Positions 9,996-26,030 are shown, numbered from the stretch's first letter. The stretch: 64,000 nt of DNA from a virus (IMGVR_UViG_3300018080_000107); one strand, 5' to 3'. Made by a program: numbers and translations. Notes: generated by a model from the letters alone, not told the origin.

Positions 9996-10970
9996 ATGAA
10001 AATCCGTTAATATTTTTCCAAAAACCCTACCGGGGTATCTGTCAAGAAACTTGACACCCCAAAATCACCCAGGAAATAATAGGTCGCCCGTTCTTTCCCT
10101 GTCTCTATTCTGTACATAGCCCTTACCTTATCTACTATTTGGACAATATCTAAGCAATCGAAAGTATATTATTTTTCTTTCATATTCACCCTCATTGGCA
10201 TGAAAACGCATTAATAATCATAATCATTAACAATCTTTCATAATAGGCTGATGTCAGGATTAAAATATATTCATAGCGCCGATTCGCCCAATCATTAAAA
10301 ATCGTTAATACTTCTCTCCCTGGCATGAAATTGCATTCATACTCTACATATAGCAAATATCTATTTAATTGACGAAAAAAGGGGATTTTATCTTTTTCTT
10401 GATACTTGCCAAATAGGCAATGTGCCCCATTCTTACCTGGCCCACTACCCTATTTCTACCCTATGCCAAATAGGCAATCGCGGGAAAAGATTAAAAACCT
10501 TTCATATCCTGCCATAGTGACATATGCCCTAAACATTAACGCCCATTCATTTTGCGCCATTCTGGCAGGTAGGTAAAAATGCCCTATAGGAATTTTTTGA
10601 GTATGGAAAAATGCCATAGTGTGGCCCACAGTAGAAACCCGGAATTATTAACGTTCCTTAATATTTCTATACCTTGCTATACTGTATAGGTATATCTTAC
10701 ATGGGGGATTCTTACATATATGGAATAATGGGAAAGGTTTATTCTCTTTTGTCGTAAGGCTTTACGACGATATGAGGGATTTTCTATTAGACGCCCTATA
10801 AGGCACCATCAACGGCTTTCATGGTCGATATATGCTTAGGTATTCGCCCTATAGTGATTTGCTCTTGTGTGCTATCTCACGGCTTGCTATTTTGCTTAGT
10901 ACCGAAAATGTACCATGATTAGACAGTTTTTAGATTCTCCCCGGAAGTAATAAGATGAATACCCTTTAAT
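9996..10970. repeat. non-coding region with 10 copies of palindrome ATKAA-N6-TTMAT
   Basis: Copies start at 9996, 10200, 10226, 10259, 10294, 10325, 10490, 10535, 10647 and 10955. Confidence 0.85.
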
Positions 10971-11023
10971 GTGATGTCAAGAAAGTAGACAGTTTATATT
11001 TATAAAGTATTGCGCCCAAAAGA

Positions 11024-11554
11024 TTAAGGAAAGTTAATATTGCCCTTTCTTGCCCTTCTACTATTACAAGATTTACATATAATCCTTACGTTACTTAGTT
11101 CATAATGTCCTTTACTATCTATTCGGTCTATAGTTGGTTTATCAGTTTTTGAATCCCGCATCATAGGCTTTCCGCATATAGGGCAATCATGAATATTCTT
11201 TAACAATCCTTCTATATCCGATAATGAAAGAAGGTTAATAATACCCTTTGCGCCATAATACCTATATGATTTATGGGTTTTATCATAACACCTTCTATTA
11301 ATATCCTTTAATATAAACTTTGCCCTATTAGCCTTCATGTATTGTTTGTAATATTTAGGATTTTTATTCTTATTCTGTCTACTGTAATTAATGCGTGATT
11401 CTCTATTCCGCTCATAATAGGCTTTTTGCCATTCTTTCCTTTTGTCTTGATTCTTTACATAGTGTGCCCTTTGTGTGCATTTATCACTACAATATTTCCT
11501 TTGCTTTCCCGTCAATTCTTGCCCACAAACTATACACTTTTTCCCATTGCCCAT
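11024..11554 (-). CDS. HNH-like endonuclease with N-terminal zinc finger
   Basis: CPICG...TIDRIDSKGHYELSNVRIICKSCN; start reassigned to MGNGKK. Confidence 0.75.
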   Translation of the reverse strand: MGNGKKCIVCGQELTGKQRKYCSDKCTQRAHYVKNQDKRKEWQKAYYERNRESRINYSRQNKNKNPKYYKQYMKANRAKFILKDINRRCYDKTHKSYRYYGAKGIINLLSLSDIEGLLKNIHDCPICGKPMMRDSKTDKPTIDRIDSKGHYELSNVRIICKSCNSRRARKGNINFP

Positions 11555-11664
11555 TATTAAAATTCCTTCATAATTAATACCAGAAATAGACACATCCTCT
11601 ATATTACTAGACTATCATTTTAGCCCATCTTTACATTAAAAGACTTTCATAATTCTAAGCCTAC

Positions 11665-11691
11665 AAAAAAAGCCTACCAAAAAGGTAGGCT
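11665..11691 (-). terminator. intrinsic terminator
   Basis: AGCCTACC/GGTAGGCT hairpin with U-tract on minus strand. Confidence 0.7.
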
Positions 11692-11713
11692 ATATAGGAA
11701 ATGAAACGAAGAT

Positions 11714-12043
11714 TTAACAATCGGTAAACTCAGGAATAGCACCTAGAACTTGATAGATTAATGCGTGTTTATACATCGATGTATTTTCGGCAAGGCTATA
11801 TCCTTTGTATCCGTTCTTTCTAGCATTGCGCAACATCACATAGTACAGAAAATCGAAAACTTGCAGCGGGACATTGTTTAGATGTTCGTCAACCTTGAAA
11901 CGTTCCCGCAAATCGTCAACGCCCGATAATCCAAACATCGATAAATCGTCAGGATTCAGACAAACGCCCATCTTTTTGACAAGATTTCTGTATTTTTCGT
12001 AATGCTCTTTTGTCGTCTTTTTTGTCAATTGTGTAGTCATCAT
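11714..12043 (-). CDS. hypothetical protein
   Basis: ORF with GAAAGG RBS inside the 16-bp box. Confidence 0.7.
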   Translation of the reverse strand: MMTTQLTKKTTKEHYEKYRNLVKKMGVCLNPDDLSMFGLSGVDDLRERFKVDEHLNNVPLQVFDFLYYVMLRNARKNGYKGYSLAENTSMYKHALIYQVLGAIPEFTDC

Positions 12044-12055
12044 ATTAACGCCCTT

Positions 12056-12289
12056 TCATTCTGAAAAATCGTATTCATAAAGACTTTTCATAACTTCATA
12101 AACTGTATCGAAAGTAACACTATAGCCATCAAACTTGCTATCGCCATAATAGCGCAAGAAAGTATCAACGGCTTCCGATAGGCTATCGGCTTGCCTGATA
12201 CAATCTAAGGCAAAATGGTATAGTTCATAATCGTTATTTATCCAAAGGCTTATAGCCCAATGATGACGGGTTTGATGTCCGTTATACAT
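12056..12289 (-). CDS. hypothetical phage protein
   Basis: YNG...HWAISLWINNDYELY phage-type motif. Confidence 0.7.
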   Translation of the reverse strand: MYNGHQTRHHWAISLWINNDYELYHFALDCIRQADSLSEAVDTFLRYYGDSKFDGYSVTFDTVYEVMKSLYEYDFSE

Positions 12290-12304
12290 AGTTCAACCTT
12301 TCAT

Positions 12305-12460
12305 TTACTGATTATTTGCGATTCTTTCGGCTTCCGTAACCAGATGTGCATTTTCGCCCATTTTGGCCAATTCGGCCATTCTTTCGGCTTTCGTCGCGCC
12401 AAAATTCACAAGGCGATAGGCTTCCGCGAAAAATTCGATTCTTTCATTTTCGTTCATCAT
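12305..12460 (-). CDS. hypothetical protein
   Basis: Start reassigned to MMNENE after GAAAGG. Confidence 0.55.
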   Translation of the reverse strand: MMNENERIEFFAEAYRLVNFGATKAERMAELAKMGENAHLVTEAERIANNQ

Positions 12461-12473
12461 TTTCCCCTTTCGA

Positions 12474-12569
12474 TTAAAAAGAAAAGGCTTCAAGCATACT
12501 GAAACCGACATAAGCAAAGTAAACGGCTTTGATTGTCAAGATGATGCAAACGGCTTTAAACTTACTCAT
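12474..12569 (-). CDS. 31-aa hydrophobic peptide, copy A
   Basis: MSKFKAVCIILTIKAVYFAYVGFSMLEAFSF; GAAAGG RBS; class I promoter upstream. Confidence 0.7.
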   Translation of the reverse strand: MSKFKAVCIILTIKAVYFAYVGFSMLEAFSF

Positions 12570-12604
12570 TGTTTTTTACCTTTCGTTTTTATTGCCCTCT
12601 ATAG

Positions 12605-12622
12605 GTAGCCTTGAAAACAAGG
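12605..12622 (-). promoter_or_regulatory. class I promoter motif CCTTGTWTNNAGGCTAC (representative copy)
   Basis: Minus-strand copies also at 13477, 14559, 15609, 15905, 16700, 17636, 18232, 18755, 19292, 19846, 20728, 21226, 25049, 26389, 26945, 28242, 30003, 30830, 32090, 32414 and 33314; plus-strand copies at 16043, 21277, 33372, 35709, 37559 and 42394. Confidence 0.85.
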
Positions 12623-12659
12623 CATATACAGATTAAAATCAATTAATCTTTTTTGCTTC

Positions 12660-12755
12660 CTAAAAATCGAAGGCTTCAATCATACTGATGGCCACATAAC
12701 CGAAATAGATAGCCTTGATAGTCAAGATGGCGATGACGGCTTTAAACTTACTCAT
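12660..12755 (-). CDS. 31-aa hydrophobic peptide, copy B
   Basis: MSKFKAVIAILTIKAIYFGYVAISMIEAFDF; 23/31 identical to copy A. Confidence 0.7.
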   Translation of the reverse strand: MSKFKAVIAILTIKAIYFGYVAISMIEAFDF

Positions 12756-12800
12756 TTTGTTACCTTTCGTTTTTCGGCTTGTTTGTTACTCGACTATCTA

Positions 12801-12828
12801 AGTATACGATGGTATGCAGGATGCGCAA
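12801..12828 (-). promoter_or_regulatory. host sigma70-type promoter
   Basis: TTGCGC-N16-TATACT followed by leader TAGATAGTCGAGTAACAA shared with the 13939 promoter. Confidence 0.6.
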
Positions 12829-12870
12829 GGTTTATTTTCCCCGATTCTCGGTTTTTCCTAAACCCTTTAT

Positions 12871-13446
12871 TTATACAATCTTATCGGATTTTCGCCGATT
12901 ACATTTTGCACAAAGTAATTGAACGTTTTCGGGATTGTCGTTTCCACCTTTGCTATACGGTAAGATGTGGTCATATTGTAGGCTTTCATTTGTGCCACAT
13001 TTTACACATCGACCATTAGAACGGACAAAAGCTATTTTTTTAGACAATTCCGGGATTTCTCGCCTATCCTCTTGTGTTTTATGATTAAATGAACGATGAT
13101 TAATATTTAGCCATTCTATAGCTTCTTGCAATTCTGTTTTATCGGTTTCAGGTTTTATCGATTGTCTGATTTCCCTTAATACCCTTTCGGATTCCTCTTG
13201 TGTCTCATAAATTAAACCATCTTCATTTTTCGGCCTTTCGGCTTTTTCCTTGTCTTTATCGTATGCAAGGGAAACAAGGATAGATGTCAGTATTCCCCAC
13301 AATAACCAAAACATCAGATGTGATATATCAAAGCATACTGATGCAAACCCAACCCAAAAGATAGATATTAAACCGAACCATAGAAAACGCCATGCAAGCT
13401 TTACGGCTTGCCCTATAGCCTTGATAGTATTAATAGTGTTTTCCAT
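12871..13446 (-). CDS. membrane-anchored HNH endonuclease
   Basis: Two N-terminal TMs; CVKCG...QYDHILPYSKGG...NVQLLCAKCNRRKS. Confidence 0.85.
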   Translation of the reverse strand: MENTINTIKAIGQAVKLAWRFLWFGLISIFWVGFASVCFDISHLMFWLLWGILTSILVSLAYDKDKEKAERPKNEDGLIYETQEESERVLREIRQSIKPETDKTELQEAIEWLNINHRSFNHKTQEDRREIPELSKKIAFVRSNGRCVKCGTNESLQYDHILPYSKGGNDNPENVQLLCAKCNRRKSDKIV

Positions 13447-13537
13447 TTTTTGCCTTTCGTTTTTACCCTTCTATTAATACCCTTCAAAACAAGGCTATAC
13501 AGATGAAAACTTATTAATCTTTCTCGGCTTGCCCATA

Positions 13538-13566
13538 GGGGAAAGGCTTAGCGCCCTTCCCCCTTT
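13538..13566. terminator. putative terminator hairpin
   Basis: GGGGAAAGG/CCCTTCCCC inverted repeat downstream of 13576..13893. Confidence 0.5.
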
Positions 13567-13575
13567 GCCCTTGTT

Positions 13576-13893
13576 TTAGCTTGCAACCTTGCCAATGCTT
13601 GCCCTTGCCCTTTTAAGGCTATCCGAAACGGCTTGTTGTGTTGTATTCAAGGCTTCCGCGATAGCCTTCTGATTCAATCCTTCCCGATAGTACAATTGAA
13701 CGATGGTTTTTTGCTTTTCGGTAAGGGTATCGGAATAGTCCAGAATGATGGCCGTTTCAATCCTTCCCGTCATCAATTTCCTGATGTCTTCATCGTCTAC
13801 CCTTCCCGATTCCATCGACGGGATAAGGCTTTCGACGGCTTCACAAAGGCTTTTGCAATTGTTTCTCTTTTCGCATGTTTCACAGTTAGTCAT
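13576..13893 (-). CDS. sigma70 region-4 HTH protein with N-terminal Cys cluster
   Basis: LTEKQKTIVQLYYREGLNQKAIAEALNTTQQAVSDSLKRA; CETC...C...C. Confidence 0.8.
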   Translation of the reverse strand: MTNCETCEKRNNCKSLCEAVESLIPSMESGRVDDEDIRKLMTGRIETAIILDYSDTLTEKQKTIVQLYYREGLNQKAIAEALNTTQQAVSDSLKRARASIGKVAS

Positions 13894-13938
13894 GATTCGC
13901 CCTTTCGTTTTTGTTTCGGCTTGTTACTCGACTATCTA

Positions 13939-13967
13939 ATACTACGATGCTATGCTCATATCGTCAA
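13939..13967 (-). promoter_or_regulatory. host sigma70-type promoter
   Basis: TTGACG-N17-TAGTAT upstream of the HTH gene. Confidence 0.65.
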
Positions 13968-14001
13968 GGAAGATTAAAGACTTTTAATAATTGCCCTTTC
14001 C

Positions 14002-14517
14002 CTATGCTGGCGCATAGGTATAATCGGGAGAAAAATCGATACAGTAAACGGCTTTGATTTCCCCATCATTGTCAACGTCAAGGGTAATGTTTCCCCCGTG
14101 TCTATCGCCGATGTCGATTCCTACGGCGTCCATCTTTTCCTGGCAGTATCGGGAAAGATTAAAACCCTTAAATCTAACGTCCATACTAGAAATGCCCTTA
14201 TCATAGCAATAATCGGTAAGTGTAGTATTGCCACAATGTGACATCACGATGCCGAACCTTTCCACGTTTTCGCCGGAAACCTTTACGATAACCTTAAAAA
14301 CGCCAATAGGTTTAGGGGAAACGCCCGATGGTTCTGCTTGTTTCAAAAGCTTATATTCGGCCATTGCTTCACAGTATGCAGCGGAAAGGGTTTTCTGTTT
14401 CAATACCTTGACGCCAATAGAATCAGTAAGCTTGAAATACATAGAATAAAGACCACTACCCATCATCGGCTTATGAGTAACAATAAATTCGGCTTTCATG
14501 TTTTCGTAATTAGTCAT
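14002..14517 (-). CDS. minimal protein kinase-like protein, paralog 1
   Basis: GSGLYS loop, GVKV, helix-C Glu, DRHGGN catalytic loop, IDF. Confidence 0.75.
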   Translation of the reverse strand: MTNYENMKAEFIVTHKPMMGSGLYSMYFKLTDSIGVKVLKQKTLSAAYCEAMAEYKLLKQAEPSGVSPKPIGVFKVIVKVSGENVERFGIVMSHCGNTTLTDYCYDKGISSMDVRFKGFNLSRYCQEKMDAVGIDIGDRHGGNITLDVDNDGEIKAVYCIDFSPDYTYAPA

Positions 14518-14858
14518 GATTCAACCTTTCGTTATTGTTTTTGTTTCGCCCTTCATAGGTAGCCTTGAATACAAGGCTATACAGAAAATTAAATCGTTTT
14601 AATATTTCTCTCATATCACGCATCTATATATAATAGTATAGGCTTTTCCCCTATGCAAATATCGTTCCCGACACCATCCGATTGTCCAAATAATAGACAA
14701 AAAAACCTGAAATAATAGCTTTCTCTGTGAAGCCTTCTAAGCCGTTTTAACGGCTTTAAGCCTTTATATGTATATCTACCCTCATTTGTCGCGCATCGAC
14801 GTTATCCGTCTAAACCCTTACTATATATAGACTTATGACGACGTATTTTGAAAACCCG

Positions 14859-14874
14859 TGCAAGAATCGTGCCA
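14859..14874 (-). promoter_or_regulatory. sigma54 (-24/-12) promoter consensus
   Basis: TGGCACGATTCTTGCA, a perfect match. Confidence 0.6.
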
Positions 14875-14885
14875 GACGCCCTTTT

Positions 14886-15013
14886 ATTAAACCTTTTTAA
14901 TATTTCAAGCCGATTTATTAAATTGCTTTCATTTTCAATCTATACTATTGCTATAGACTTTTTTATTAAATTGCCTTCATAATTGTAGACTTGGATTATT
15001 AAGATTCTTTCAT
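14886..15013. repeat. four ATKAA-N6-TTMAT boxes
   Basis: Copies at 14886, 14917, 14965 and 14998. Confidence 0.85.
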
Positions 15014-15028
15014 AATTCGGACACCATC

Positions 15029-15056
15029 AAAAAAAGCCTACCGAATAGATAGGCTT
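15029..15056 (-). terminator. intrinsic terminator
   Basis: AAAGCCTA/TAGGCTTT hairpin, similar to the 11665 terminator. Confidence 0.65.
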
Positions 15057-15100
15057 TGTAGTTAATTAGTTTTCTACTATTACTGATTTTTAATCATTGC

Positions 15101-15116
15101 TGGAACGGTTTTTGCT
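15101..15116 (+). promoter_or_regulatory. sigma54-like promoter
   Basis: TGGAACGGTTTTTGCT (GG-N10-GC). Confidence 0.45.
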
Positions 15117-15148
15117 ACCCCATAGGCTTTCCCCTTTATGAAAATTGT

Positions 15149-15427
15149 TTAACTTACTAATTCAAGCCTTTCAGATTCTTCATTGTAATCGATTCCCAAT
15201 ATGCGCATAATATCGCATGATACATCTAGGTCACTACCCAAAACATCGATGCCGTATTTATCGCCATCTAACGGCCAAGCCGTAACATCGATGGTTACAC
15301 AAGGAAAAGGATAGATAGCCTTCATTTTGTAGGCTTCAAGGCGATACTTTCGCCCTTCATACTCGAAAACCTTGCCATTAACAGATAGAAAAACTTCATT
15401 GTAATCGGAAAGAAGATTAAAAGACAT
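15149..15427 (-). CDS. hypothetical protein
   Basis: Start and stop both overlap 16-bp boxes. Confidence 0.7.
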   Translation of the reverse strand: MSFNLLSDYNEVFLSVNGKVFEYEGRKYRLEAYKMKAIYPFPCVTIDVTAWPLDGDKYGIDVLGSDLDVSCDIMRILGIDYNEESERLELVS

Positions 15428-15442
15428 TAATTTTACCTTTCG

Positions 15443-15577
15443 TTACTGCCAAGTTTTGATGGCGTTTCTGTTGTTTTCTTTTCGTCCGATATCGGATACT
15501 TTAGCAAAGCCGATTCGGATACCTTCCGCCACTATAGCAAAGGTAAACAGGATACCGATAGTTGCAAATATTGTCAT
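15443..15577 (-). CDS. 44-aa membrane peptide
   Basis: MTIFATIGILFTFAIVAEG...KTWQ; GAAAGG RBS; class I promoter. Confidence 0.6.
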   Translation of the reverse strand: MTIFATIGILFTFAIVAEGIRIGFAKVSDIGRKENNRNAIKTWQ

Positions 15578-15645
15578 GATTCAGCCTTTCAGTTATCGCC
15601 CTCTATAGATAGCCTTCAATACAAGGCGATACAGATGAAAAAGCT

Positions 15646-15873
15646 TTAATATTTCATGATTCCAGTAAAAAGCCTTTGTCCAATAAGATGACAATCTTCG
15701 GGCAATGGCGTAAACGTCCAATTAGCGCCAGGAAGCCGAAAAGCTTGCCCATCGATGTATGCTGTACAATGCTTTGTAGTAAGCTTTATTTGTCCTTCCC
15801 TGCCCATTGCGCCATCATTCTTGGCCGTTACTACCCTTCCGATTATCGCATCGATTCTTACGGTTTTAAGCAT
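15646..15873 (-). CDS. hypothetical protein
   Basis: Own class I promoter and RBS. Confidence 0.65.
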   Translation of the reverse strand: MLKTVRIDAIIGRVVTAKNDGAMGREGQIKLTTKHCTAYIDGQAFRLPGANWTFTPLPEDCHLIGQRLFTGIMKY

Positions 15874-16196
15874 TATTTAGCCTTTCAGTTATCGCCCTTC
15901 ATTGTAAGCCTTCAATACAAGGCGATACAGATGAAAATGGTTTAATCTTTCTATGTTTTGCCCTTCTAATATAGATAGTATAGAAGCCTATTCAAATGGT
16001 ATGCCAGATTTTCAATTATGAAAGAAATTTAATCTGCATAGGCTTTGTTTTCAAGGTTACTGATGACGGGAAAAAATAAAGGGTAAAAAAAGGTAGTTTG
16101 AAAAAGAAACATGTAAAATTTCCCTATGGGTAAAAAATCCCTATATGGAAAAATAGGTCGGTAAGAAATACCTGTTTGAAATCCATACATGGGAAA

Positions 16197-16385
16197 ATGA
16201 AGATTCTTTAATGATTAAGATTCTTTCATTATGAATAGATTTTAATGTGAAAGGATTTTCATGAAAAAAAGTTAATGAAGAAATTTTCATGAAAGAAATT
16301 TCATGAAGGGATTTTAATCCTTAGAGCAGAAAAAAACCGGCGTCGGAGTCATTTTCCTTAGAGCCGGTTAATATTGGCGTCGGAG
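16197..16385. repeat. tandem array of 8 ATKAA-N6-TTMAT boxes plus two AGAGC-N11-GGCGTCGGAG motifs
   Basis: Boxes at 16197, 16214, 16231, 16247 (GTGAA variant), 16261, 16275, 16289 and 16303; bipartite motifs at 16323 and 16360. Confidence 0.85.
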
Positions 16386-16466
16386 TCATTTTTTGATTCC
16401 GGCGTTTTTTTGTTTAGCAAGTAGGGGAACGGCTTTTCAGCCGCCCCCCTCAAACCTGGAGAGTTT

Positions 16467-16655
16467 TCAAATTTTCACAATATAAAGGTCGTTTCCGTTC
16501 TTTTGAATCCTAAAGCCATTCTGGCTTGCGAATGCCCGATGTGCTGGCGACACGTCAAAGAACCTTGAAAGCTTCTCGAAACGCTTGCTGCCTATCTTGT
16601 CCATTGCTTCCGTCAATGCGTCCATTACATTACTCGTCAGTTCTGAAGTCAACAT
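16467..16655 (-). CDS. hypothetical protein
   Basis: Start reassigned to MLTSE after GAAAGG. Confidence 0.6.
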   Translation of the reverse strand: MLTSELTSNVMDALTEAMDKIGSKRFEKLSRFFDVSPAHRAFASQNGFRIQKNGNDLYIVKI

Positions 16656-16744
16656 TGCTTTGCCTTTCTGTTTTAGGTTTTTACTTTCGTCTCTCATAAG
16701 TAGCCTTCTATACAAGGTCTGAATTATTAATCTTCTTTAATCTA

Positions 16745-17173
16745 TCAACACTTTTCCAAAAGTGAATCTTCTTTCATCTTTCGGATTTTCGCCTTATACT
16801 TTCGTGTTGCCTTGCGAACCTTTTGCCGCCCCTTATCGGTCTTATGATAGTCCCTAACGGCTTTTCGTTGCCTATCCGCACCACAAGCCTTACAATACTT
16901 CTTTCGTCCGTCACGCGCCCACATAGGCTCCCCACATTGCAAACAATCCTTGATGACGCCCCCTCTTTTCCTTTGCACCATCAAAACCTCTACAATGCCC
17001 CGTAAAGCCTTTAGACGCTCAATAGGTCTTAGGGTACACGCACGCCACGCATCAAGCTCATGCGTTCTTGTATAGGCGCTACAGGCAAGCTTAGGTCGTG
17101 CTTCGATATCGATACCAAAAAGTAGCCCATTTTTTTGTGCCGTTACTCCACCGTTCAATTTAACAGTCTTCAT
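16745..17173 (-). CDS. zinc-finger basic protein
   Basis: CLQCG...YCKAC and basic tail. Confidence 0.65.
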   Translation of the reverse strand: MKTVKLNGGVTAQKNGLLFGIDIEARPKLACSAYTRTHELDAWRACTLRPIERLKALRGIVEVLMVQRKRGGVIKDCLQCGEPMWARDGRKKYCKACGADRQRKAVRDYHKTDKGRQKVRKATRKYKAKIRKMKEDSLLEKC

Positions 17174-17234
17174 CTTTATAAACCTCTTTTTTGTTGTCAG
17201 GAAAATTATTAACCGCCATTAATGTGAACGCTTG

Positions 17235-17408
17235 TTAATCGTCGGCAAGCTTAACCAGTATAGCCGTCCAAATAATCGCCCAAGGAATTGACACCGCAAA
17301 CATTGCAAGCCGTTGCCAAAAGGTGTCTGGCTCAAGCAAAAGCCAAGGTGCCATGATTCCACCGATAAGCAAACACAAAAAGATAATCACTCTAAGCAAA
17401 TCAGACAT
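17235..17408 (-). CDS. 57-aa two-TM membrane protein, paralog of 25445..25735
   Basis: MSDLLRVIIF...PWLLLEPDTFWQRLA...; bracketed by boxes. Confidence 0.65.
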   Translation of the reverse strand: MSDLLRVIIFLCLLIGGIMAPWLLLEPDTFWQRLAMFAVSIPWAIIWTAILVKLADD

Positions 17409-17422
17409 TTTATTAATCCTTA

Positions 17423-17599
17423 TTAATTTTTCTTTTCAACCTTGTACCAAGCCAACTGAATGCCGCCCGTCTTAGTACAATAGCGGACTTCATCAGCACT
17501 CTTAAGCTTATTGGTTATAGTTCTACTGTCAACAATCTTGATGGCTTCCGCAAGCACTTCCTCAGCGAATGCTTTCACTTTCAGTTCTTTTTTAGTCAT
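17423..17599 (-). CDS. 58-aa hypothetical protein
   Basis: MTKKELKVKAFAEE...; class I promoter upstream. Confidence 0.6.
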   Translation of the reverse strand: MTKKELKVKAFAEEVLAEAIKIVDSRTITNKLKSADEVRYCTKTGGIQLAWYKVEKKN

Positions 17600-17662
17600 G
17601 ATGTTTCCTTTGTTAAAGTTTTTTGCTCTCTATAAGTAACCTCAAATACAAGGCCATATAGA

Positions 17663-18202
17663 TTAATCTTCTCTCACACAACAGTATGATGGTGAAAAGT
17701 CGATACACCAAACCTTTGATATTGCCCCAAAAGCGTCAGTTTCTACGATGATGTTTCCGGCGTGTCTATCCCTAAGATTCAATCCGCAAGCCTTCATTTT
17801 GTCGTAAATATAATCGCAAAGCTCAGTTTCAGCAAACTCGATATCATCAATGCTGTAATCATCTTCATCCCAATAACCTGAATCAAATTCTTCATTTTCC
17901 CTTTTCCACTGATAAAGCGACATCCCCGGACAATGCGTCATCAAGATGCCGATACGCACTATCGGCGTGCCATCAAGATGTGCCCCGTCTTTAACCTTGA
18001 CAATGCCAATGCCCTTTGGAGTGATTCCGCTAGATTCAGCCTGCTTAATATAACTGTACTCTTCAACGGCTTCATCAAAAGCCTCATCAAGTTCTTCATT
18101 CTTCAGAACCTTGATTCCGATAGTTTCAGACACCATATAATAGGTGCTATAAAGACCACTACCAACCGATGTTTTGTGAGTTACATTAAGAGTTACTTCC
18201 AT
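17663..18202 (-). CDS. minimal protein kinase-like protein, paralog 2
   Basis: GSGLYS, GIKV, EEY, DRHAGN, WCIDFSP; aligns end to end with 14002..14517. Confidence 0.75.
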   Translation of the reverse strand: MEVTLNVTHKTSVGSGLYSTYYMVSETIGIKVLKNEELDEAFDEAVEEYSYIKQAESSGITPKGIGIVKVKDGAHLDGTPIVRIGILMTHCPGMSLYQWKRENEEFDSGYWDEDDYSIDDIEFAETELCDYIYDKMKACGLNLRDRHAGNIIVETDAFGAISKVWCIDFSPSYCCVRED

Positions 18203-18343
18203 TCTTTCCTCCATTAATATCACCCTCATCAGTAGCCTTTAATACAAGGTCATCTATATGAAAATTCTTTAATCTTGGGTCCAAAAAAAAGGCGCACCAA
18301 CAAGGCACGCCACAAAACGAAAGGTCATAACGATGAATTCTGT

Positions 18344-18724
18344 TTAATCTTCCTCTACTTCAATCTCCATAAGGTTAGTAGTATCTACACCGAAAGCTTC
18401 AAGATGTTCTTTAAGGTCTGCAAGCTCATCGGCAAGTATCGTGCCGTTTATATAGTCTTCATCACTATCGCACTCGATGCCCCACAATCCGCCAGAACGT
18501 AAGGTTTCTATCCGCCTATCGCCCCGTTCATTAGTGGGATAAGATACGGTAGCCTCTACCCACATACCAAGCATCCACACGTCGCCATTATGAAATTGCT
18601 TTAATCTTTCTTCGTTGCTCGCATTGTGCTCATCCGTGAAAGTCTCGTCATACTCCAGATAAGACAAGTCGGGAAATTCGTCAACAACCTTCACAAACTT
18701 CAGTTTATCAATCGTCGGTTTCAT
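18344..18724 (-). CDS. hypothetical acidic protein
   Basis: Own class I promoter; stop codon in box. Confidence 0.7.
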   Translation of the reverse strand: MKPTIDKLKFVKVVDEFPDLSYLEYDETFTDEHNASNEERLKQFHNGDVWMLGMWVEATVSYPTNERGDRRIETLRSGGLWGIECDSDEDYINGTILADELADLKEHLEAFGVDTTNLMEIEVEED

Positions 18725-18791
18725 TGCTTCGCCTTTCTTTATTAGCCTCTATAGTTAGCCTCTAATACAAGGTCAGAAGTATTAAAATCCC

Positions 18792-19262
18792 TTAATCTAC
18801 GCACTGTCCGATGAAAACGTCACAAGCATCCCCTTCCCCGCAAGTAATCCAACATCCAATACTTTCAGCTTCTTTATCTAATGCTTCCCGAAATATCTCA
18901 TCAAGCTCAGCTTCCCATTCTTCCACATTACTACACGCCCACGGCATGTAAAATTTACCCGATGGATACAAGGAAAATACCGTGCCCAAGAAAACCATTT
19001 TAGACTTATTTCCGTCATAGTCTTCTATTACTTCTGATTCATCCAAAGCCTCTACGATTTTTTCCTTATACAGTATCCCATTATTAATAAGCTCTAATAC
19101 CTCTACTCTTTTTTGGTACTCATCTGTTTCTTGCACATCATAAAGCTTATCACCGATTGCCTTTAGATTCTGTACAATATCCACCGTCCGCCCATAGCGC
19201 ACGGCATAAAGTCCCGTGCTTACCACAATACTGTTTCTGTTAAGTTCTTCACTTGTAATCAT
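18792..19262 (-). CDS. hypothetical acidic protein
   Basis: Own class I promoter; stop codon in box. Confidence 0.7.
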   Translation of the reverse strand: MITSEELNRNSIVVSTGLYAVRYGRTVDIVQNLKAIGDKLYDVQETDEYQKRVEVLELINNGILYKEKIVEALDESEVIEDYDGNKSKMVFLGTVFSLYPSGKFYMPWACSNVEEWEAELDEIFREALDKEAESIGCWITCGEGDACDVFIGQCVD

Positions 19263-19328
19263 GTTTCACCTTTCAGTTATCGCCCTCATCAGTAACCTTC
19301 AAAACAAGGTGATATACATTAAAATTCT

Positions 19329-19814
19329 TTAAGGAATCGGGACAACATCCCCGCCGCAATTGTGCCTATACTTGCCGCCACGACGATAAGCCTTAACCAT
19401 ATTGGTATGTTTACGCTTTGTAATCGGCATTACAGTTTCGCACTTCATACAAACAGCCCTATAATCCCTTGCATTGTGCTTACAAGCCATACTATGGCAC
19501 CTTTCGGCATTGCCGCCTATCCGCCTATGCATAGCCTTCCATCGCCTGTTGTGACCGTTTCCAGGACCAACAAGAAGATGTGCTATTTCGTGCAGAACCG
19601 TGTTTCTGAAATTGCTTTCATTTTCCGCCCTTCTGAAAATCTCATTGCTCAGTTGAACCATAAACAGTTTATGCTTTGCTTTACCGGCAGTAGTCCGAAG
19701 TCTCGTATTGACACTAAAAACGATACGCCCAAGCTCCCCTTGATAGATGGGAAACCGCATCATAAGTTCCGTTCTAATTTCCTTTGCCCTTGTAATCATT
19801 TCTCTTGCGTTCAT
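19329..19814 (-). CDS. SprT-like zinc metalloprotease
   Basis: RLRTTAG, VLHEIAHL, GHNRRWK, C-terminal CxxC. Confidence 0.85.
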   Translation of the reverse strand: MNAREMITRAKEIRTELMMRFPIYQGELGRIVFSVNTRLRTTAGKAKHKLFMVQLSNEIFRRAENESNFRNTVLHEIAHLLVGPGNGHNRRWKAMHRRIGGNAERCHSMACKHNARDYRAVCMKCETVMPITKRKHTNMVKAYRRGGKYRHNCGGDVVPIP

Positions 19815-19879
19815 AGTTTGCCCTTTCAGTTATTGCTCTCTATAGGACACCTTGAATACAAGGTCATACATATTAAAAC

Positions 19880-20104
19880 TTATTCATAATCAATCTCAGC
19901 ACCAAAGACGGAAGCCGGTATATTATCGGGATTCTGACGTTTCATCCATGATGGCGGATTGTCAAGCTTCACCTTAACACCGAGATAACCATCTTCCTCA
20001 AAATAACTTACAACCTTTCCCGTGCCAAGTCCGTTTAGTAGAACCTTAACAATTGAACCGATAGCCGGTACGCCACTTTTGCCAGACCATTTAATATCTT
20101 TCAT
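19880..20104 (-). CDS. hypothetical protein
   Basis: Bracketed by boxes. Confidence 0.65.
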   Translation of the reverse strand: MKDIKWSGKSGVPAIGSIVKVLLNGLGTGKVVSYFEEDGYLGVKVKLDNPPSWMKRQNPDNIPASVFGAEIDYE

Positions 20105-20117
20105 GATAAACCTTTCA

Positions 20118-20279
20118 TTAAATAGGATTGAACGTAGGATTAACTTGCGTCAATGGCGCTATCGTCCATTCTGAATCAATATTCATTTCAGCCCACATTG
20201 ATGCAACCTCCATACAATCCCAAGGTCCATAAAAAGTTGCACCGTCAACCATATTCCCAACAATCAAAACGTAAACCAT
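20118..20279 (-). CDS. 53-aa hypothetical protein
   Basis: MVYVLIVGNMVDGATFYGPW...; GGAG RBS inside box. Confidence 0.6.
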   Translation of the reverse strand: MVYVLIVGNMVDGATFYGPWDCMEVASMWAEMNIDSEWTIAPLTQVNPTFNPI

Positions 20280-20290
20280 ATTAATCTCCA

Positions 20291-20695
20291 TTAACCTATG
20301 ACGTTATCAATGCTTCCATTCTCACAATGCCACGTTTCACAATCATCAATCTCCATTCCGATTTTTGTGAAAGTTCTTTCAGTAATCAGCCCATCCCTTT
20401 CGCAAGCCTTCAAGGCTTCCCGCCAAAGCTCGATAATTTCCCAATGGGTACGCCCTTCCCCGCCACACTCGGCAGCCTCATGAATGCGATTACACATTTC
20501 ACGCTTTTCAGGACAAGCCGAGTAGCCCAAGCCACTTATGAAAGATTCTTCATAAGCCTGAAAGTATTCTGAATTATAGAAGTCCTCAAGATTATGAATC
20601 CCTTCATCATTCTGCTTGCGTACAAGCTTCAGCCTTTCGGCTTTCTCGTCAATCGTCACGTCAACAGGACAAAATTCAATCGTTACAGTTTTCAT
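20291..20695 (-). CDS. hypothetical protein
   Basis: Start reassigned to MKTVT; own class I promoter. Confidence 0.65.
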   Translation of the reverse strand: MKTVTIEFCPVDVTIDEKAERLKLVRKQNDEGIHNLEDFYNSEYFQAYEESFISGLGYSACPEKREMCNRIHEAAECGGEGRTHWEIIELWREALKACERDGLITERTFTKIGMEIDDCETWHCENGSIDNVIG

Positions 20696-20756
20696 TGTTT
20701 CACCTTTCGTTATTGCCGCCCTCATCTATAGCCTGCAATACAAGGCGACATACAGA

Positions 20757-21191
20757 TTAATCTTTCTTAATTTTGTATATGATGTAAGCGCCCTTCTTTT
20801 CCGCCACAACCTCAAAAGGCAGTACACGATTTACTTGATAAGTTCCGGTTTTCGTCCATCCTTCTTTCTTGATGTCTCGCCTAACTGTAATGTATGCAGT
20901 TCCACCAACAACAAGGTAATCATGAATGCCCTTTAATACACCGTGAACCTCATCGTCAGTTATGACATTCAATACATAATTACAAACAACTGTATCAAAT
21001 TGCCCTTCCGGCTTCTCAGGACGATGGAACGGGTCAAAGCCTGCAATACCAAGCTCATCGGCGTCAAAGCCTTTCCCACAACCATAGTCCAATACACGCC
21101 CCGTCAGAAGTCCTCTATCCCTTAGAAGTCGCATAGGGACACTAAGGGTTTTTCTCGTGATTGCTGTTTTGTGTGCTTTGTCATTCTTCAT
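20757..21191 (-). CDS. class I SAM-dependent methyltransferase
   Basis: VLDYGCGKGFD...FDP...FDTVVCNYVLNVI. Confidence 0.8.
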   Translation of the reverse strand: MKNDKAHKTAITRKTLSVPMRLLRDRGLLTGRVLDYGCGKGFDADELGIAGFDPFHRPEKPEGQFDTVVCNYVLNVITDDEVHGVLKGIHDYLVVGGTAYITVRRDIKKEGWTKTGTYQVNRVLPFEVVAEKKGAYIIYKIKKD

Positions 21192-21362
21192 TAGTTTGCC
21201 TTTCATTTGTTTTCCGCCCTCATTGGTAGCCTGAAATACAAGGTATTGTGAAAAAAGATTAACTGTATATCCTAAGTCTTGTATTTGAGGCTACTTATGA
21301 ACGGGGAGTTATCCCCACCTATTCTATCTTATATAACAAGCGAAAATAGGAGGATTTGCCAG

Positions 21363-21530
21363 ACGAAAATGAGTTAATGATTACGAAAGTTTAATGATTA
21401 ATGTTTTTTAATGAATGAATTTTAATGAAGATTCTTTAATGTGAAAATCGCTTAATGTATGATGTGATTTTCATAGAGCCAGAAGGTTTCGGCGTCGAAG
21501 GCTAAGAGCGGCCAATATCCGGCGTCGAAG
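21363..21530. repeat. tandem array of about 7 ATKAA-N6-TTMAT-like boxes plus two AGAGC-N11-GGCGTCGAAG motifs
   Basis: Exact boxes at 21397, 21411 and 21425; near matches at 21363, 21380, 21441 and 21459; bipartite motifs at 21475 and 21505. Confidence 0.8.
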
Positions 21531-21577
21531 CCTTTTTTTGTTGACCCGACATTAAGAAATTTTAATCTAATGTGCAT

Positions 21578-21650
21578 AAAAAAACCCACCGCAACAAGCG
21601 ATGGGTTCTGGTTTGTCCCTGGTCGGGTCGCTACGCTGCGACCCGCCATG
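21578..21650 (-). terminator. terminator and hairpins after the MazG operon
   Basis: AACCCA/TGGGTT hairpin with A-run and CGGGTCGC/GCGACCCG hairpin. Confidence 0.55.
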
Positions 21651-21658
21651 CTTGAGTG

Positions 21659-21988
21659 TTACCTATCATCCCCACTTCCATGAAGCTTCCCCCTGCGCTT
21701 CCTATCATAAAGCTTATCAATATTTGTTTGTGCAATATCGGCAAGGTCAAGATTAAGTTCTTCCGCCAAAGCTGCGAGATACCATAGCACGTCTCCCAGT
21801 TCCTTCTTTAGCGCCCGTCTAAGCTCGTCTGACAGCACTCCACCACTGTCGCGTATCATCTTCTTAATCTTCTCTGCTATCTCTCCAGCCTCGCCACAAA
21901 GCCCCAGTGTTGGATAAATAATATTGTTTCCCTTATTCGGATAAACAGCAGTCTCCATCGCCCTTTGCTGATACATATTAAAGTCCAT
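21659..21988 (-). CDS. MazG-like nucleoside triphosphate pyrophosphohydrolase
   Basis: LGLCGEAGEIAEKIKK...KELGDVLWY...GSGDDR. Confidence 0.9.
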   Translation of the reverse strand: MDFNMYQQRAMETAVYPNKGNNIIYPTLGLCGEAGEIAEKIKKMIRDSGGVLSDELRRALKKELGDVLWYLAALAEELNLDLADIAQTNIDKLYDRKRRGKLHGSGDDR

Positions 21989-22428
21989 TAATTTCCCCCT
22001 TTGTTCCCATACTTTTCCTGCATTTCAATCTTGCGCTGCAAAACTCTAATGTCTCTTTGTGCCTTTTCCCTTACTGGCTTGACAACGCAACGCTCATATA
22101 TAGCATTGATTTCTTTTACATCGCCACGCATTGCTCCCTTTGCTCGTGCAAAAGCAATTTGACGCCCCATCCTTTTGCTGAAAGTATCGTCACACTGACA
22201 AAACGCATGGCCGATAGATACAGTTGCCCACGCCTTCAAGTCGCCATCACGCAAACGCTTCTTGATGATTGCCGTAGTCATAAACTCTACATCTTCAACA
22301 GCACGCTCAGTCATTTCATCGATAAAACCGCCCTCAACAGTCCTATCTACCGCACGCCTAAGCTCGTCGTTAGTGAAAAACACATCCTTGTGCTCGAAAA
22401 ATACCTGATAGTCGCCTTCTTTCCACAT
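21988..22428 (-). CDS. hypothetical phage protein
   Basis: GHAFC...DTFSKRMGRQIAFARA motif. Confidence 0.7.
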   Translation of the reverse strand: MWKEGDYQVFFEHKDVFFTNDELRRAVDRTVEGGFIDEMTERAVEDVEFMTTAIIKKRLRDGDLKAWATVSIGHAFCQCDDTFSKRMGRQIAFARAKGAMRGDVKEINAIYERCVVKPVREKAQRDIRVLQRKIEMQEKYGNKGGN

Positions 22429-22431
22429 AAT

Positions 22432-22683
22432 TTACTCCTGTACAAAACCAAGCCAAATAATTTTCTCTGATTTTAACAGAAAAGTATTCAACAATTCTGA
22501 CACTGCATCAATATGTCCTTTGACAAACCGAGTATGATGAATACCCGCAATGCTCGTGAATGTTATTAAGGTTTTTTCACCGTCCACAAACTTGATGGAA
22601 CAAGCATACTGACACAACGGGAAATACTCTGTCCGACATTCATTATCAATCGCTATTACTTTGTTCATTACCAATGCTTCCAA
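22432..22683 (-). CDS. hypothetical protein
   Basis: ORF in operon. Confidence 0.55.
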   Translation of the reverse strand: MEALVMNKVIAIDNECRTEYFPLCQYACSIKFVDGEKTLITFTSIAGIHHTRFVKGHIDAVSELLNTFLLKSEKIIWLGFVQE

Positions 22684-22840
22684 AAACTCTTATGGTATCC
22701 ACACTTTGTACACAGAAGCGACACCCTATCGCCAGTCCGCTTGTCACCAAAACAACCCTTCACTTGTGCCCACTCCTCATGCTTTTCAAATTCATGTTTA
22801 CAAAAACACTGTCTTAGATAATTTATAAACCAACGCACTA

Positions 22841-23518
22841 TTAAACCTCTACCTTTTCTGCATATTTCTTATGATAATTCTTTAAGAAAGTCGGTGCCTT
22901 ATTGAATTGGTCAGGAGAAAAATAAACTCTCCGGTCAAGAAATCCCATAAAATAAAACGTCACATAGCTCGACAAAAACATGTCGTTATTATGTTCAAGA
23001 TCCACAATATGGTCGAATAGCACTACCGCCGCCTTAATATCCGCCACTGTGAAAAGAGGCATCATAGCCTCCAACTTACCGGCTTCCCTTGCGATGATGG
23101 CCCAGTTATCGCCACCATACATTCTATCCCAATGCAGTTGATTGAATGCCCTTTCACACTCCTCAAATGAAATTATCCTATTGTCACGTATGCTTATGAA
23201 AACATATTCATTTTTGTAGTTTCTTTTCAGCCAAGCCTCATTATGTTCCTTCCTCCTATTCTGCTTGGCAAGTGCTTCCTCTGGACTATTTGAATACCAG
23301 TCTACCGTATGTTGATTTTCAGAACTACCATGCCGCCAATGGCGCAATTCCTTACAGCACGCATTCTTACAAACTGTTAAAAGCTTCCCAATCTTCCCTT
23401 CAAGCTCACTGATTACCCTGCGCAACTCAGCCTCACGCATTTTATGCAGATGTGGAAGCATATGTGAAATCAAATAAACAGAATGAAAATCGCCAATCTT
23501 CATCTTCATACGCATCAT
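22841..23518 (-). CDS. hypothetical phage protein
   Basis: 225 aa; YGGDNW...FDHIVDLEHNN motif. Confidence 0.7.
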   Translation of the reverse strand: MMRMKMKIGDFHSVYLISHMLPHLHKMREAELRRVISELEGKIGKLLTVCKNACCKELRHWRHGSSENQHTVDWYSNSPEEALAKQNRRKEHNEAWLKRNYKNEYVFISIRDNRIISFEECERAFNQLHWDRMYGGDNWAIIAREAGKLEAMMPLFTVADIKAAVVLFDHIVDLEHNNDMFLSSYVTFYFMGFLDRRVYFSPDQFNKAPTFLKNYHKKYAEKVEV

Positions 23519-23781
23519 CAGTTCTCCAACACGTCAACCTCATTAGCCTTAACAATATGAATACGCCTTGTCTTATCAAGCAAAACAGTATAAGCCTCTG
23601 TATGTGGATGTACATACGTCACCGTACCAACCTTACCACGAATAAGCGGACTAATATAGTTCAGTCGCTTGATGCAAACCCTGTCACCCTTTTCAAGATA
23701 AACATGTCCTTTAATCTTCTTCATATCAAACCTCCTATAATAAGCCCCAGAAACAAGGCTCATTAAGATTTTTTCACGCAC
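23518..23781 (-). CDS. hypothetical SH3/KOW-like protein
   Basis: KGDRV...GKVGTV; true start may be downstream. Confidence 0.5.
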   Translation of the reverse strand: MREKILMSLVSGAYYRRFDMKKIKGHVYLEKGDRVCIKRLNYISPLIRGKVGTVTYVHPHTEAYTVLLDKTRRIHIVKANEVDVLEN

Positions 23782-24035
23782 TTAACAAATGTCTCACAAT
23801 CTTCAGGAATTATAAAAGCCGTGAAAGGCTTCCCCCTGCCAAACGGTGGCTGGTTCTTAATCGCATATACCAATGAAGGATTGCTAAACCCCATAGGCAC
23901 CGCTTCATCGCCCCAATATACTGCATTAACTTCGTCAGTATAGAAACCGCCACAACGCCCACATCGGCACTCTCGCCTATGTTCGGAAACCAACCGAACC
24001 ACATCTTGACAATGCGTACATAAAACTAATTTCAT
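23763..24035 (-). CDS. hypothetical Cys-rich protein
   Basis: CTHCQD...CRCGRC. Confidence 0.65.
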   Translation of the reverse strand: MKLVLCTHCQDVVRLVSEHRRECRCGRCGGFYTDEVNAVYWGDEAVPMGFSNPSLVYAIKNQPPFGRGKPFTAFIIPEDCETFVKCVKKS

Positions 24036-24229
24036 ACTTTCTTCCTCTGAAACATTACCTTATAGTAATATTTCGTGTAAGAACCTTCTTCATAATCATA
24101 AGATACTTCTTCTGAATCTTCTTTCATCCATACGACAAACCAACCAAGCTTGCCTTCTTCGTCAAGAACCTTGATTAAGTCTTTTTCACTAATCAACGTT
24201 ATTAACTGTGATTCATATTCATCGTACAT
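24032..24229 (-). CDS. hypothetical protein
   Basis: Coupled ORF. Confidence 0.55.
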   Translation of the reverse strand: MYDEYESQLITLISEKDLIKVLDEEGKLGWFVVWMKEDSEEVSYDYEEGSYTKYYYKVMFQRKKV

Positions 24230-24585
24230 TAATCGTCATCCTCATCCTTAAGCTTAAGTAGTCGCTTAATAGATTCAATATCAGCCTCAATCTCATCGCG
24301 TTCTTCTTTTACTTCCGCAAGGCGATTGCGACAATGGCTCAAATCAATATTCAAATTCTTGATTTTTCGTTCCAAGTCACATTTCTGATTATATGCACTA
24401 CTACACTTAGCACAATACAAACTAAAAAAAACAATTGTTCCAACAAACAACAATCCTGCGCCAATGGATAGTGCCAACAATCCACCAAGATGCATTTCAA
24501 CAATCATTATTACTCCATCATAATCTTCCAAATTTACCGGGTGGCTCCATAGCACCCAAAGGCAAACCATAACGTTCTTTAACAA
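24229..24585 (-). CDS. TM coiled-coil protein
   Basis: Hydrophobic segment then heptads; start likely near 24508. Confidence 0.55.
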   Translation of the reverse strand: MLKNVMVCLWVLWSHPVNLEDYDGVIMIVEMHLGGLLALSIGAGLLFVGTIVFFSLYCAKCSSAYNQKCDLERKIKNLNIDLSHCRNRLAEVKEERDEIEADIESIKRLLKLKDEDDD

Positions 24586-24814
24586 GGTTCAACAGACGCC
24601 AAATTGCAATAAGCTCATCGATGTCTCGATAGTCTGTCTTCCAAGCCCAATCAAGTTCTTCCCAACAAATCCGAACAGATTCCTTATCAAACTCTTCTAA
24701 CTCTTCAAGGAAAAGTTCAGGATTGTAATACCTAATATCAACAACGCCCCAACCCTTTTCCCACCTTAGCCATTTTCCAGAATTACTCATACCATCTTCC
24801 TTCCGGTTCAACAT
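24518..24814 (-). CDS. hypothetical protein
   Basis: ORF in operon. Confidence 0.55.
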   Translation of the reverse strand: MLNRKEDGMSNSGKWLRWEKGWGVVDIRYYNPELFLEELEEFDKESVRICWEELDWAWKTDYRDIDELIAIWRLLNLVKERYGLPLGAMEPPGKFGRL

Positions 24815-25028
24815 CTGCCCAGTCTAACTTATACGCACGCCTAATAAGTATTAGCTCGTACCAAATCACTCTCAGTCTCATGCTAAGTGCTTCAGACCAA
24901 CCCTCAGTTCTGTGAACTCGATTAAGTCTCCGCAACTCCAAGTGATGGTCATATACAAGCTCATAATCACGTGCAGTCATAACAGGCACCAAGTGCCGTA
25001 TGTAACGCCAATATTCCGTCATATCCAT
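24783..25028 (-). CDS. hypothetical protein
   Basis: Follows class I promoter at 25049. Confidence 0.55.
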   Translation of the reverse strand: MDMTEYWRYIRHLVPVMTARDYELVYDHHLELRRLNRVHRTEGWSEALSMRLRVIWYELILIRRAYKLDWADVEPEGRWYE

Positions 25029-25088
25029 TTTAAAGCTCCCTTCTATAGTAAGCCTTAAAAACAAGGTGTCAGGAAAATTAATATGCGC

Positions 25089-25735: not shown

Positions 25736-25760
25736 TACTCTTTCCTTAAAAACAACTCTA

Positions 25761-25789
25761 AAAAAATGGGCGGGTAACATCCCCGCCCG
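25761..25789 (-). terminator. intrinsic terminator
   Basis: GGGCGGG/CCCGCCC hairpin with U-tract. Confidence 0.7.
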
Positions 25790-25820
25790 TCCATACGAAA
25801 GGAGTCGGGCAAACGCCCGT

Positions 25821-26004: not shown

Positions 26005-26030
26005 ATAAACTATATTTTTAAAATTAATAA

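Follow-up and report, generated by a model that had tools for sequence, protein, structure and literature searches.

The window analyzed here is a 64-kb stretch of the ~166-kb genome of an uncultured phage (IMGVR_UViG_3300018080_000107). Its early block, with genes on the minus strand, consists of small ORFan genes in a layout of one gene and one promoter module, and it is studded with a 16-bp palindrome, ATKAA-N6-TTMAT, referred to below as the box. The modules, of ~80 nucleotides (nt), comprise a box, a spacer, the core of a promoter class designated class I, and a leader. Boxes also form arrays in gene-free DNA, and two of these arrays lie downstream of class I cores that are antisense to the genes of the block. 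Coordinates of the principal features are collected in Table 1.

Boxes and class I promoters of the early block

The window contains 66 exact boxes, whereas 100 dinucleotide shuffles averaged 1.2 and never exceeded 4. Fifty-three of these lie between positions 9990 and 22000, where local shuffles predict 0.37, a ~140-fold excess and a density of one site per ~230 bp. No exact box is found in positions 1 to 9990; positions 22000 to 34000 hold five (0.10 expected from local shuffles), and positions 34000 to 64000 hold eight (0.60 expected). Boxes with one mismatch are also overrepresented in the block (24 versus 5.5 expected). An earlier note on this DNA had reported the palindrome and estimated its chance expectation at ~0.3, which agrees with the shuffles of the block, and the scan against shuffled controls bears out the enrichment that it claimed. 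Its counts were too low: 52 exact boxes, rather than 45, lie within 9996-21566, and 14, rather than 6, lie outside that interval (those it missed are at 21977, 23196, 24201, 35516, 47741, 48201, 55435, and 57314). Counts apart, its description of the box was accurate, and the central 6 bp are mostly variable, as it stated, although they are not fully free, with position 6 mostly A and position 7 mostly a purine.

When the two halves of all boxes are pooled, A occupies position 6 in 67 of the 132 half-sites, and 102 have a purine at position 7. The resulting half-site, ATKAAaR, gives a 7-2-7 palindrome (ATTAAAGAATTTTAAT is an example of a consensus box), a form typical of the sites of helix-turn-helix (HTH) or ribbon-helix-helix (RHH) dimers. 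Across the 66 boxes, the commonest 6-bp core is seen four times and most cores are seen once. Complementarity between the two halves is lower than expected for independent positions (27 versus 34 for positions 3/14, 14 versus 23 for 6/11, 14 versus 20 for 7/10, and 10 versus 18 for 8/9), and there is still no excess when G-U pairs are allowed. The two halves vary independently, and there is therefore no sign of selection for a hairpin or cruciform; each half appears to be read separately. This pattern argues against a hairpin, a cruciform, or a folded single-stranded site and fits a dimer that would tolerate G or T at position 3.

Only eight of the 53 boxes of the block lie wholly within coding sequence, although the block is 68% coding (binomial P = 2e-15), and the other 45 are outside coding interiors. 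The gene junctions listed in the earlier note were all checked and all hold. Stop codons fall inside boxes at 11023, 12044, 15635, 17412, 18333, 18781, 19872, and 20756 and inside near-boxes at 15138, 17224, 19318, and 20280, and start codons abut or overlap boxes at 11556, 12044, 15416, 20280, and 46959. Several genes are bracketed by boxes. Much of this boundary placement arises because the box is the first element of the promoter module of the next gene, its ATTAA arm supplying the TAA stop codon of the preceding one. In addition, the variable core of some junction boxes carries a ribosome-binding site (RBS), as at 12044 (Table 1), at 11556, 17412, 20103, and 20280, and, on the plus strand, at 46959.

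On the coding strand, the class I core spans ~30 bp and reads CCTTGTATT-nR-AGGCTA-n-CTATAGAGGGCG (in short form, CCTTGTATT..AGGCTA..TATAGAGGGCG); a short leader, a stereotyped GAAAGG RBS, and ATG follow on its 3' side. A position weight matrix (score of ≥19) called 29 such cores, which are distributed over both strands from 12.6 to 42.4 kb. For 26 of the 29, a box (two mismatches or fewer) lies no more than 16 bp upstream, compared with 9% of control positions; 17 of these boxes are exact, 5 have one mismatch, and 4 have two. The most frequent gap between box and core is exactly 8 bp (13 cases), on either strand. The promoter-proximal half of the box is intact in every promoter-linked copy, and mismatches are confined to the distal half. 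In the typical module at 15575-15655, the box contains the TAA of gene 15646-15873.

Boxes also lie between divergent cores. A single box is shared by the promoter pair near 33343, which marks the split of two transcription arms, and the GC skew turns at ~33 kb; a two-mismatch near-box lies between the divergent cores at 21243 (minus strand) and 21277 (plus strand). A box between divergent cores fits a symmetric factor working in either orientation.

Boxes are largely absent from a second set of promoters (class II; GTAAT-N15/16-CGTCTA; n = 7), which resemble those of extracytoplasmic function (ECF) sigma factors, and sigma-70-like sites are not enriched in the block. The box therefore belongs to one promoter class. 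The class II site at 9887 begins right where the boxes end.

The class I core has no sigma-70-like hexamers at the proper spacing. It is T7/SP6-like in forming one contiguous conserved block that runs through the start site and ends in CTATAG and G-rich bases. T7-type promoters are not known to have an upstream operator, and the class I block further differs from T7 and SP6 promoters in being longer and in having an invariant CCTTG...RAGG pseudo-hairpin. The latter pairs over 4 to 7 bp with an invariant left arm, shows no covariation, and is not followed by a T-run. From the core we infer a phage-specific polymerase or factor; no polymerase gene was found in the 64-kb window, where the longest open reading frame (ORF) is 448 amino acids (aa). 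Were the G of TATAG the transcription start, the box would span about -47 to -32. The T7 class II terminator ATCTGTT was considered as an element of the spacer and dropped, as it occurs in only about a third of the modules.

Short TATAGGGC or CCCTATA motifs recur between boxes, without the upstream CCTTG part, in ORF-free DNA at 10580-10860 (minus strand) and 16110-16150. One of these ORF-free copies reads TCACTATAGGGCGAAT, with its TATAG from 10853. Such motifs may be minimal promoters or sites of a second factor.

Table 1. Positions of boxes, promoters, arrays, and the sigma-4-like gene in the window
Feature	Position(s)	Strand	Description
Box-rich early block	9996..21992	genes on -	53 exact and 24 one-mismatch boxes
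Array A	9996..10970		11 exact boxes in ~1 kb of ORF-free DNA; five (10200-10340) spaced 26-35 bp
Array B	14886..15013		4 boxes spaced 31, 48, and 33 bp
Module C	16018..16406	+	Box 16018, 9-bp gap, antisense class-I-like core 16043, leader, boxes, terminator
Module D (twin of C)	21250..21545	+	Core 21277 back to back with minus-strand core 21243, leader, array, T-run
Junction box with RBS in variable core	12044..12059	-	TGA stop, AAGGG, ATG directly after box
Class I cores, minus strand (n = 23)	12592..33358	-	Weight matrix score of ≥19
Box-linked class I cores, first part	12622, 13494, 14576, 15626, 15922, 16717, 17653, 18249, 18772, 19309	-	
Box-linked class I cores, remainder	19863, 20745, 21243, 23758, 25066, 26406, 26962, 28259, 30847, 32107, 33331	-	
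Divergent promoter pair	33301..33402	both	One shared box, 33343-33358; cores 33331 (-), gap of 11 bp, and 33372 (+), gap of 13 bp
Class I promoter	37535..37589	+	Exact box 8 bp upstream
Class I promoter	42375..42424	+	Exact box 3 bp upstream
Typical class I module	15575..15655	-	Box 15635-15650, 8-bp spacer, core from 15626, leader, GAAAGG RBS, ATG 15577
Paralogous module	15871..15951	-	88% identical to 15575-15655
Class II sites	5439, 9887	-	Head gene blocks outside the box-rich region
Class II sites	34198, 39389, 44681, 55237, 58665	+	Head gene blocks outside the box-rich region
Sigma-4-like gene	13576..13893 (region to 13988)	-	105 aa; Cys4 cluster and sigma region-4-like HTH

Gene-free arrays and antisense modules

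The gene-free arrays described in the earlier note are real and lie at 9996-10970, 14886-15013, 16197-16318, and 21363-21456 (arrays A to D). Within the arrays, a spacing of 14 bp occurs 7 times, one of 16 to 17 bp 7 times, and one of 31 to 36 bp 8 times. The boxes are thus contiguous or about three helical turns apart, as in cooperative operator arrays. TATAGGGC motifs are scattered within array A, and array B lies just downstream of an intrinsic terminator on the minus strand (15057-15033).

Arrays C and D belong to twin plus-strand modules with leaders of ~150 nt, and the antisense class-I-like core of each is accompanied by a box of its own. The array of module C consists of eight contiguous boxes with a period of 14 to 17 bp, and that of module D of six or seven contiguous boxes and near-boxes; in both, neighboring boxes share their terminal AT, an overlap of 2 bp. 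Module C ends with two copies of TAGAGC..GGCGTCGGAG, followed by a predicted hairpin and T-run terminator (16376-16406). Module D has two GGCGTCGAAG motifs, with TAAGAGC before the second only. Pairs of GGCGTCGRAG copies ~37 bp apart precede the T-run in both antisense modules (16318-16406 and 21484-21545), and all but one of the four copies follow TAGAGC or TAAGAGC. Arrays C and D are probably transcribed from their antisense class I promoters.

A candidate operator and competing explanations

The most likely explanation, held with moderate confidence, is that a single dimeric protein with sequence-specific DNA binding uses the box as its operator and thereby controls early class I transcription. 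The earlier note had offered a master-operator system as one of two explanations, and this part of its proposal fits every test made, because the half-sites are independent, the distance to the core is fixed at 8 bp on either strand, a box is placed between divergent cores, and the arrays are contiguous. Its additional suggestion of a protein that coats the segment and activates it remains conjectural. The enrichment, symmetry, half-site independence, promoter coupling, and array geometry of the box are established here. We infer from the sequence that a protein binds it, and the identity of that protein, the direction of its effect, the position of the transcription start, and the polymerase type are likewise deductions rather than observations.

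The binder might be phage encoded or taken over from the host, and each half of the dimer would read the 7-bp ATKAAaR. A dimer bound 8 bp upstream of the core would touch the polymerase from upstream and could act as an activator or as a shut-off switch. A box at the end of the preceding gene might also block read-through, as the stoperators of mycobacteriophages do (see below). The promoter-free arrays would be cooperative, high-occupancy sites for loading or titration of the protein, and two of them would themselves be transcribed from the antisense class I promoters.

The only recognizable DNA-binding protein encoded in the block is the product of the sigma-4-like gene, 13576-13893. It contains an LPSMExGRVD motif, and its family pattern is CxxC-x5-C-x3-C, LPSMExGRVD, LYYRE..QQAV. 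A structural model (predicted local distance difference test score of 89) gave weak Foldseek matches (E of ~0.01; none at ≤0.001) to ECF sigma region 4 and UPF0122 (YlxM-type) proteins. Upstream of the gene is TTGACG-N17-TAGTAT (13967-13939), and the box 13973-13988 lies just upstream of this promoter without a class I core. No phage relatives of the protein were found. Its 57 homologues are chromosomal, nearly all in metagenome-assembled genomes of Planctomycetota, and share 44 to 55% identity with it (33% for one second copy). They hint at a Planctomycetota host, although these genomes have a GC content of 51 to 73%, compared with about 40% for the phage. The protein is a weak candidate for the box binder and could alternatively read the proximal half-box as a -35-like element.

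Gene 16745-17173 encodes a very basic 142-aa protein (38 Lys/Arg) with a CxxC...KYCxxC zinc ribbon, which resembles the N terminus of the HNH protein encoded at 11024-11593. The search of the Atlas returned no informative match for it. It is a candidate for an abundant nucleic acid binder and a putative box binder. No CRP-, FNR-, or RHH-family protein was detected in the window, apart from a nonsignificant CopG match at 32439-33272.

Several observations weigh against the operator explanation. The sole HTH protein of the block is similar to sigma region 4, a domain that ordinarily contacts DNA as a monomeric part of RNA polymerase, and boxes are absent around all 57 of its bacterial homologues, up to 5 kb on either side. 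A position of -47 to -32 would lie outside the footprint expected of a T7-type polymerase. Furthermore, part of the copies could act in RNA or translation, given the RBS-bearing cores and the many boxes that overlap stop or start codons.

A more far-reaching form of the operator explanation is unlikely. Here, one small phage protein would coat the 12-kb early block through ~80 sites in a chromatin-like manner, serving at each gene both as the upstream cofactor of a phage-specific polymerase and as a roadblock that insulates single-gene units, and antisense transcription of the arrays would load, evict, or titrate it. If true, the coating protein would set the time of early-gene shut-off, a kind of device for which no counterpart has been described in lytic phages.

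It is similarly improbable that the box is simply a part of the promoter, with its proximal half (TTTTMAT, near -35) read by the polymerase or a sigma-4-like subunit, the arrays serving as sinks for polymerase or sigma-4 protein, and no separate regulator involved. This would explain why the proximal half is always intact at promoters, with mismatches in the distal half of weaker copies, and why it lies ~19 bp upstream of the invariant AGGCTA, a spacing like that of -35 and -10 elements; a stand-alone sigma-4-like protein is, moreover, encoded in the block behind a host-type promoter. However, more than half of the boxes have no nearby core, and the full palindrome is kept far from promoters, whereas region 4 proteins bind asymmetric sites as monomers. 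The contiguous 30-bp core, extending into the transcribed region, also looks more like that of a single-subunit polymerase.

The modules may, with a rather low probability, owe their conservation to a role as portable homology for shuffling of the kind attributed to PeSL elements of T4-like phages. This idea is compatible with an operator function, and the box would stand at cassette edges only because no other conserved element of the module lies further out. The layout of one gene and one module, the small ORFans, and module paralogues that are 60 to 88% identical are in its favor, as are two paralogous genes (12477-12566 and 12662-12758) that lie behind different promoter types. In the closest pair of modules, at 15575-15655 and 15871-15951, the box arms are kept and the 6-bp core differs. 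These modules flank the 75-aa gene 15646-15873 and share the only exact repeat of ≥25 nt in the window, a 31-mer (15611-15641 and 15907-15937) that spans the 3' part of the core, the spacer, and the first 7 bp of the box. Unitigs of the one run found to contain this DNA, a sediment metagenome that is probably its source, break exactly at this repeat, and the 325-bp unitig between the two copies has a depth of 20.6, compared with 34.1 and 31.2 for its flanks. The lower depth is a weak hint of heterogeneity, i.e., presence or absence of the 15646-15873 cassette, although the depth of one contig is not a copy number and the depth of the repeat k-mers (42) fits neither simple model well. Unitig break and depth fit homologous exchange of whole modules and not exchange at the box; the PeSL comparison made in the earlier note is retained in that form, and site-specific exchange at the box is not. 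Module shuffling leaves the promoter-free arrays and the palindromic symmetry unexplained.

We regard it as doubtful that the boxes serve as replication-origin iterons or form a partition-type centromere. In the former case, the promoters of modules C and D would fire into AT-rich arrays, as at the R-loop origins of T7 and T4; in the latter, the arrays would nucleate a segregation or compaction protein. The two modules do share one layout of promoter, ~150-nt leader, AT-rich array, G-rich GGCGTCGRAG repeats, and T-run, and the contiguous 14-bp period resembles centromere-operators of the ParR/omega type. Against this, ~25 boxes each pair with one promoter over a 30-kb span, neither an initiator nor a Par protein was recognized in the window, and the turn in GC skew, at ~33 kb, is not at the arrays.

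The second explanation in the earlier note, in which boxes are sites of a tyrosine (or serine) recombinase delimiting gene cassettes and the arrays are scars, is very unlikely. The inverted arms around a 6-bp center and the bracketing of several genes recall such sites. Partner sites of tyrosine and serine recombinases need matching crossover regions, and the cassette system is improbable because the cores differ in nearly every box and a Pfam scan of ~65 window ORFs revealed no recombinase. Furthermore, the arms are only 5 to 7 bp long, the boxes overlap by 2 bp at a 14-bp period in the arrays, and the 8-bp link to the promoter is unexplained. No box-to-box joints were present in contigs of the probable source run, although contigs drop rare variants.

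An equally slight probability attaches to a function in RNA, as an AU hairpin, RNase site, or translational operator in early mRNAs and antisense array transcripts: several boxes hold an RBS in their core and adjoin start codons, and arrays C and D are probably transcribed, but the arms show no excess complementarity, five A-U pairs are too weak a stem, promoter-linked boxes lie upstream of the predicted start site, and Rfam and tRNA scans returned no match. A CsrA-like GGA-loop site was dropped as a candidate, as GGA is not conserved in the cores.

Known systems, relatives, and other genes of the window

Stoperators often overlap stop or start codons, and the box shows a distribution of the same type, with many copies at promoters and in short intergenic spaces where they overlap such codons. 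Stoperators are asymmetric 13-mers of temperate phages that are bound by a monomer and oriented with transcription, whereas the box is a 16-bp palindrome that is far denser (53 in 12 kb), forms tandem arrays, and accompanies a phage-specific promoter class. Stoperators of cluster A mycobacteriophages, which are sites of the L5 gp71-type repressor, are present in >20 copies in a phage genome, both at promoters and in very short intergenic spaces, and one protein has been proposed to govern initiation and also to halt elongation (PMC9283540).

The box also resembles the MotA box in its fixed place upstream of one promoter class. MotA boxes are found at dozens of T4 middle promoters, a single temporal class, where they stand in for the -35 element. 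They are 9-bp asymmetric sites at -30, used with a host sigma-70 -10 element in sigma appropriation by MotA and AsiA. Unlike the MotA box, the phage box is palindromic and lies further upstream, and the accompanying core is not sigma-70-like; neither a MotA nor an AsiA homologue was seen. The contiguous, head-to-tail arrangement of short palindromes in the arrays is like that of cooperative operators of RHH proteins (omega, ParR, and MetJ). The box shares with class II CRP sites a 5-6-5 geometry and a center near -40, with a sequence unrelated to TGTGA-N6-TCACA. IHF, ArgR, and cre sites were rejected as identifications of the box, having the wrong spacing or central bases.

PeSL elements of T4-like phages consist of an early sigma-70 promoter and a stem-loop terminator (PMC2839356, PMC4122927). 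Like them, the modules are repeated, stand on either side of small, apparently variable ORFs in a plastic early region, and are possible points of homologous exchange, but they consist of a palindromic box and a phage-specific core, apparently without a terminator hairpin. In function, the closest counterparts of the box are stoperators, MotA boxes, and cooperative operator arrays. It departs from defining features of each, being palindromic rather than oriented and having no sigma-70 -10 element as a partner, and is not treated here as a member of any of the three.

Multicopy phage operators tied to one promoter class are already known, and the density and the probable transcription of the arrays exceed what is described for stoperators and MotA boxes. 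If one protein reads all sites, ~25 promoters and four arrays would be wired into one switch, a compact model of global early-gene control in an uncultured large phage whose host is possibly a member of the Planctomycetota. For engineering, the module of box and core might also offer an orthogonal promoter/operator pair.

Searches of the block against 50,697 phage records (megablast and blastn) gave no match. The core and box-plus-core patterns had no match or one chance match in IMG/VR, and in JGI metagenomes the box-plus-core pattern had eight chance matches, none with the architecture. Scans of IMG/VR seeded with the SprT protein, a 414-aa protein, and the sigma-4 family found nothing or relatives of ≤34% identity without boxes; relatives of the SprT protein with 54 to 58% identity are present on short ENA contigs. 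A double-box pattern retrieved mostly AT-rich chance matches or simple tandem repeats from IMG/VR. A 6-kb viral contig (IMGVR_UViG_3300049999_001344, positions 3940-4700) contains ~850 bp of ORF-free DNA with ~15 boxes of the form (GC)ATTAA-N6-TTAAT(GC) and variable cores. This contig shares no protein with the window, and a box-like site may be used there by another system.

The paralogous genes 12477-12566 and 12662-12758 (77% identical in DNA sequence) encode hydrophobic peptides of ~30 aa (MSKFKAV...). One lies behind a box and class I core, and the other is preceded by a copy of the sigma-4-like gene's promoter and leader. On the plus strand, the region 43567-58210 is a cluster of nucleotide- and DNA-modification-type genes, which encode a GMP reductase/IMPDH-like protein, an HD protein, dCMP deaminase, two radical SAM proteins (one B12 binding), an MT-A70 methyltransferase, ThyX, GT2 glycosyltransferases, an FkbM methyltransferase, and a kinase-methyltransferase fusion. 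This gene set suggests that the phage DNA contains modified bases.

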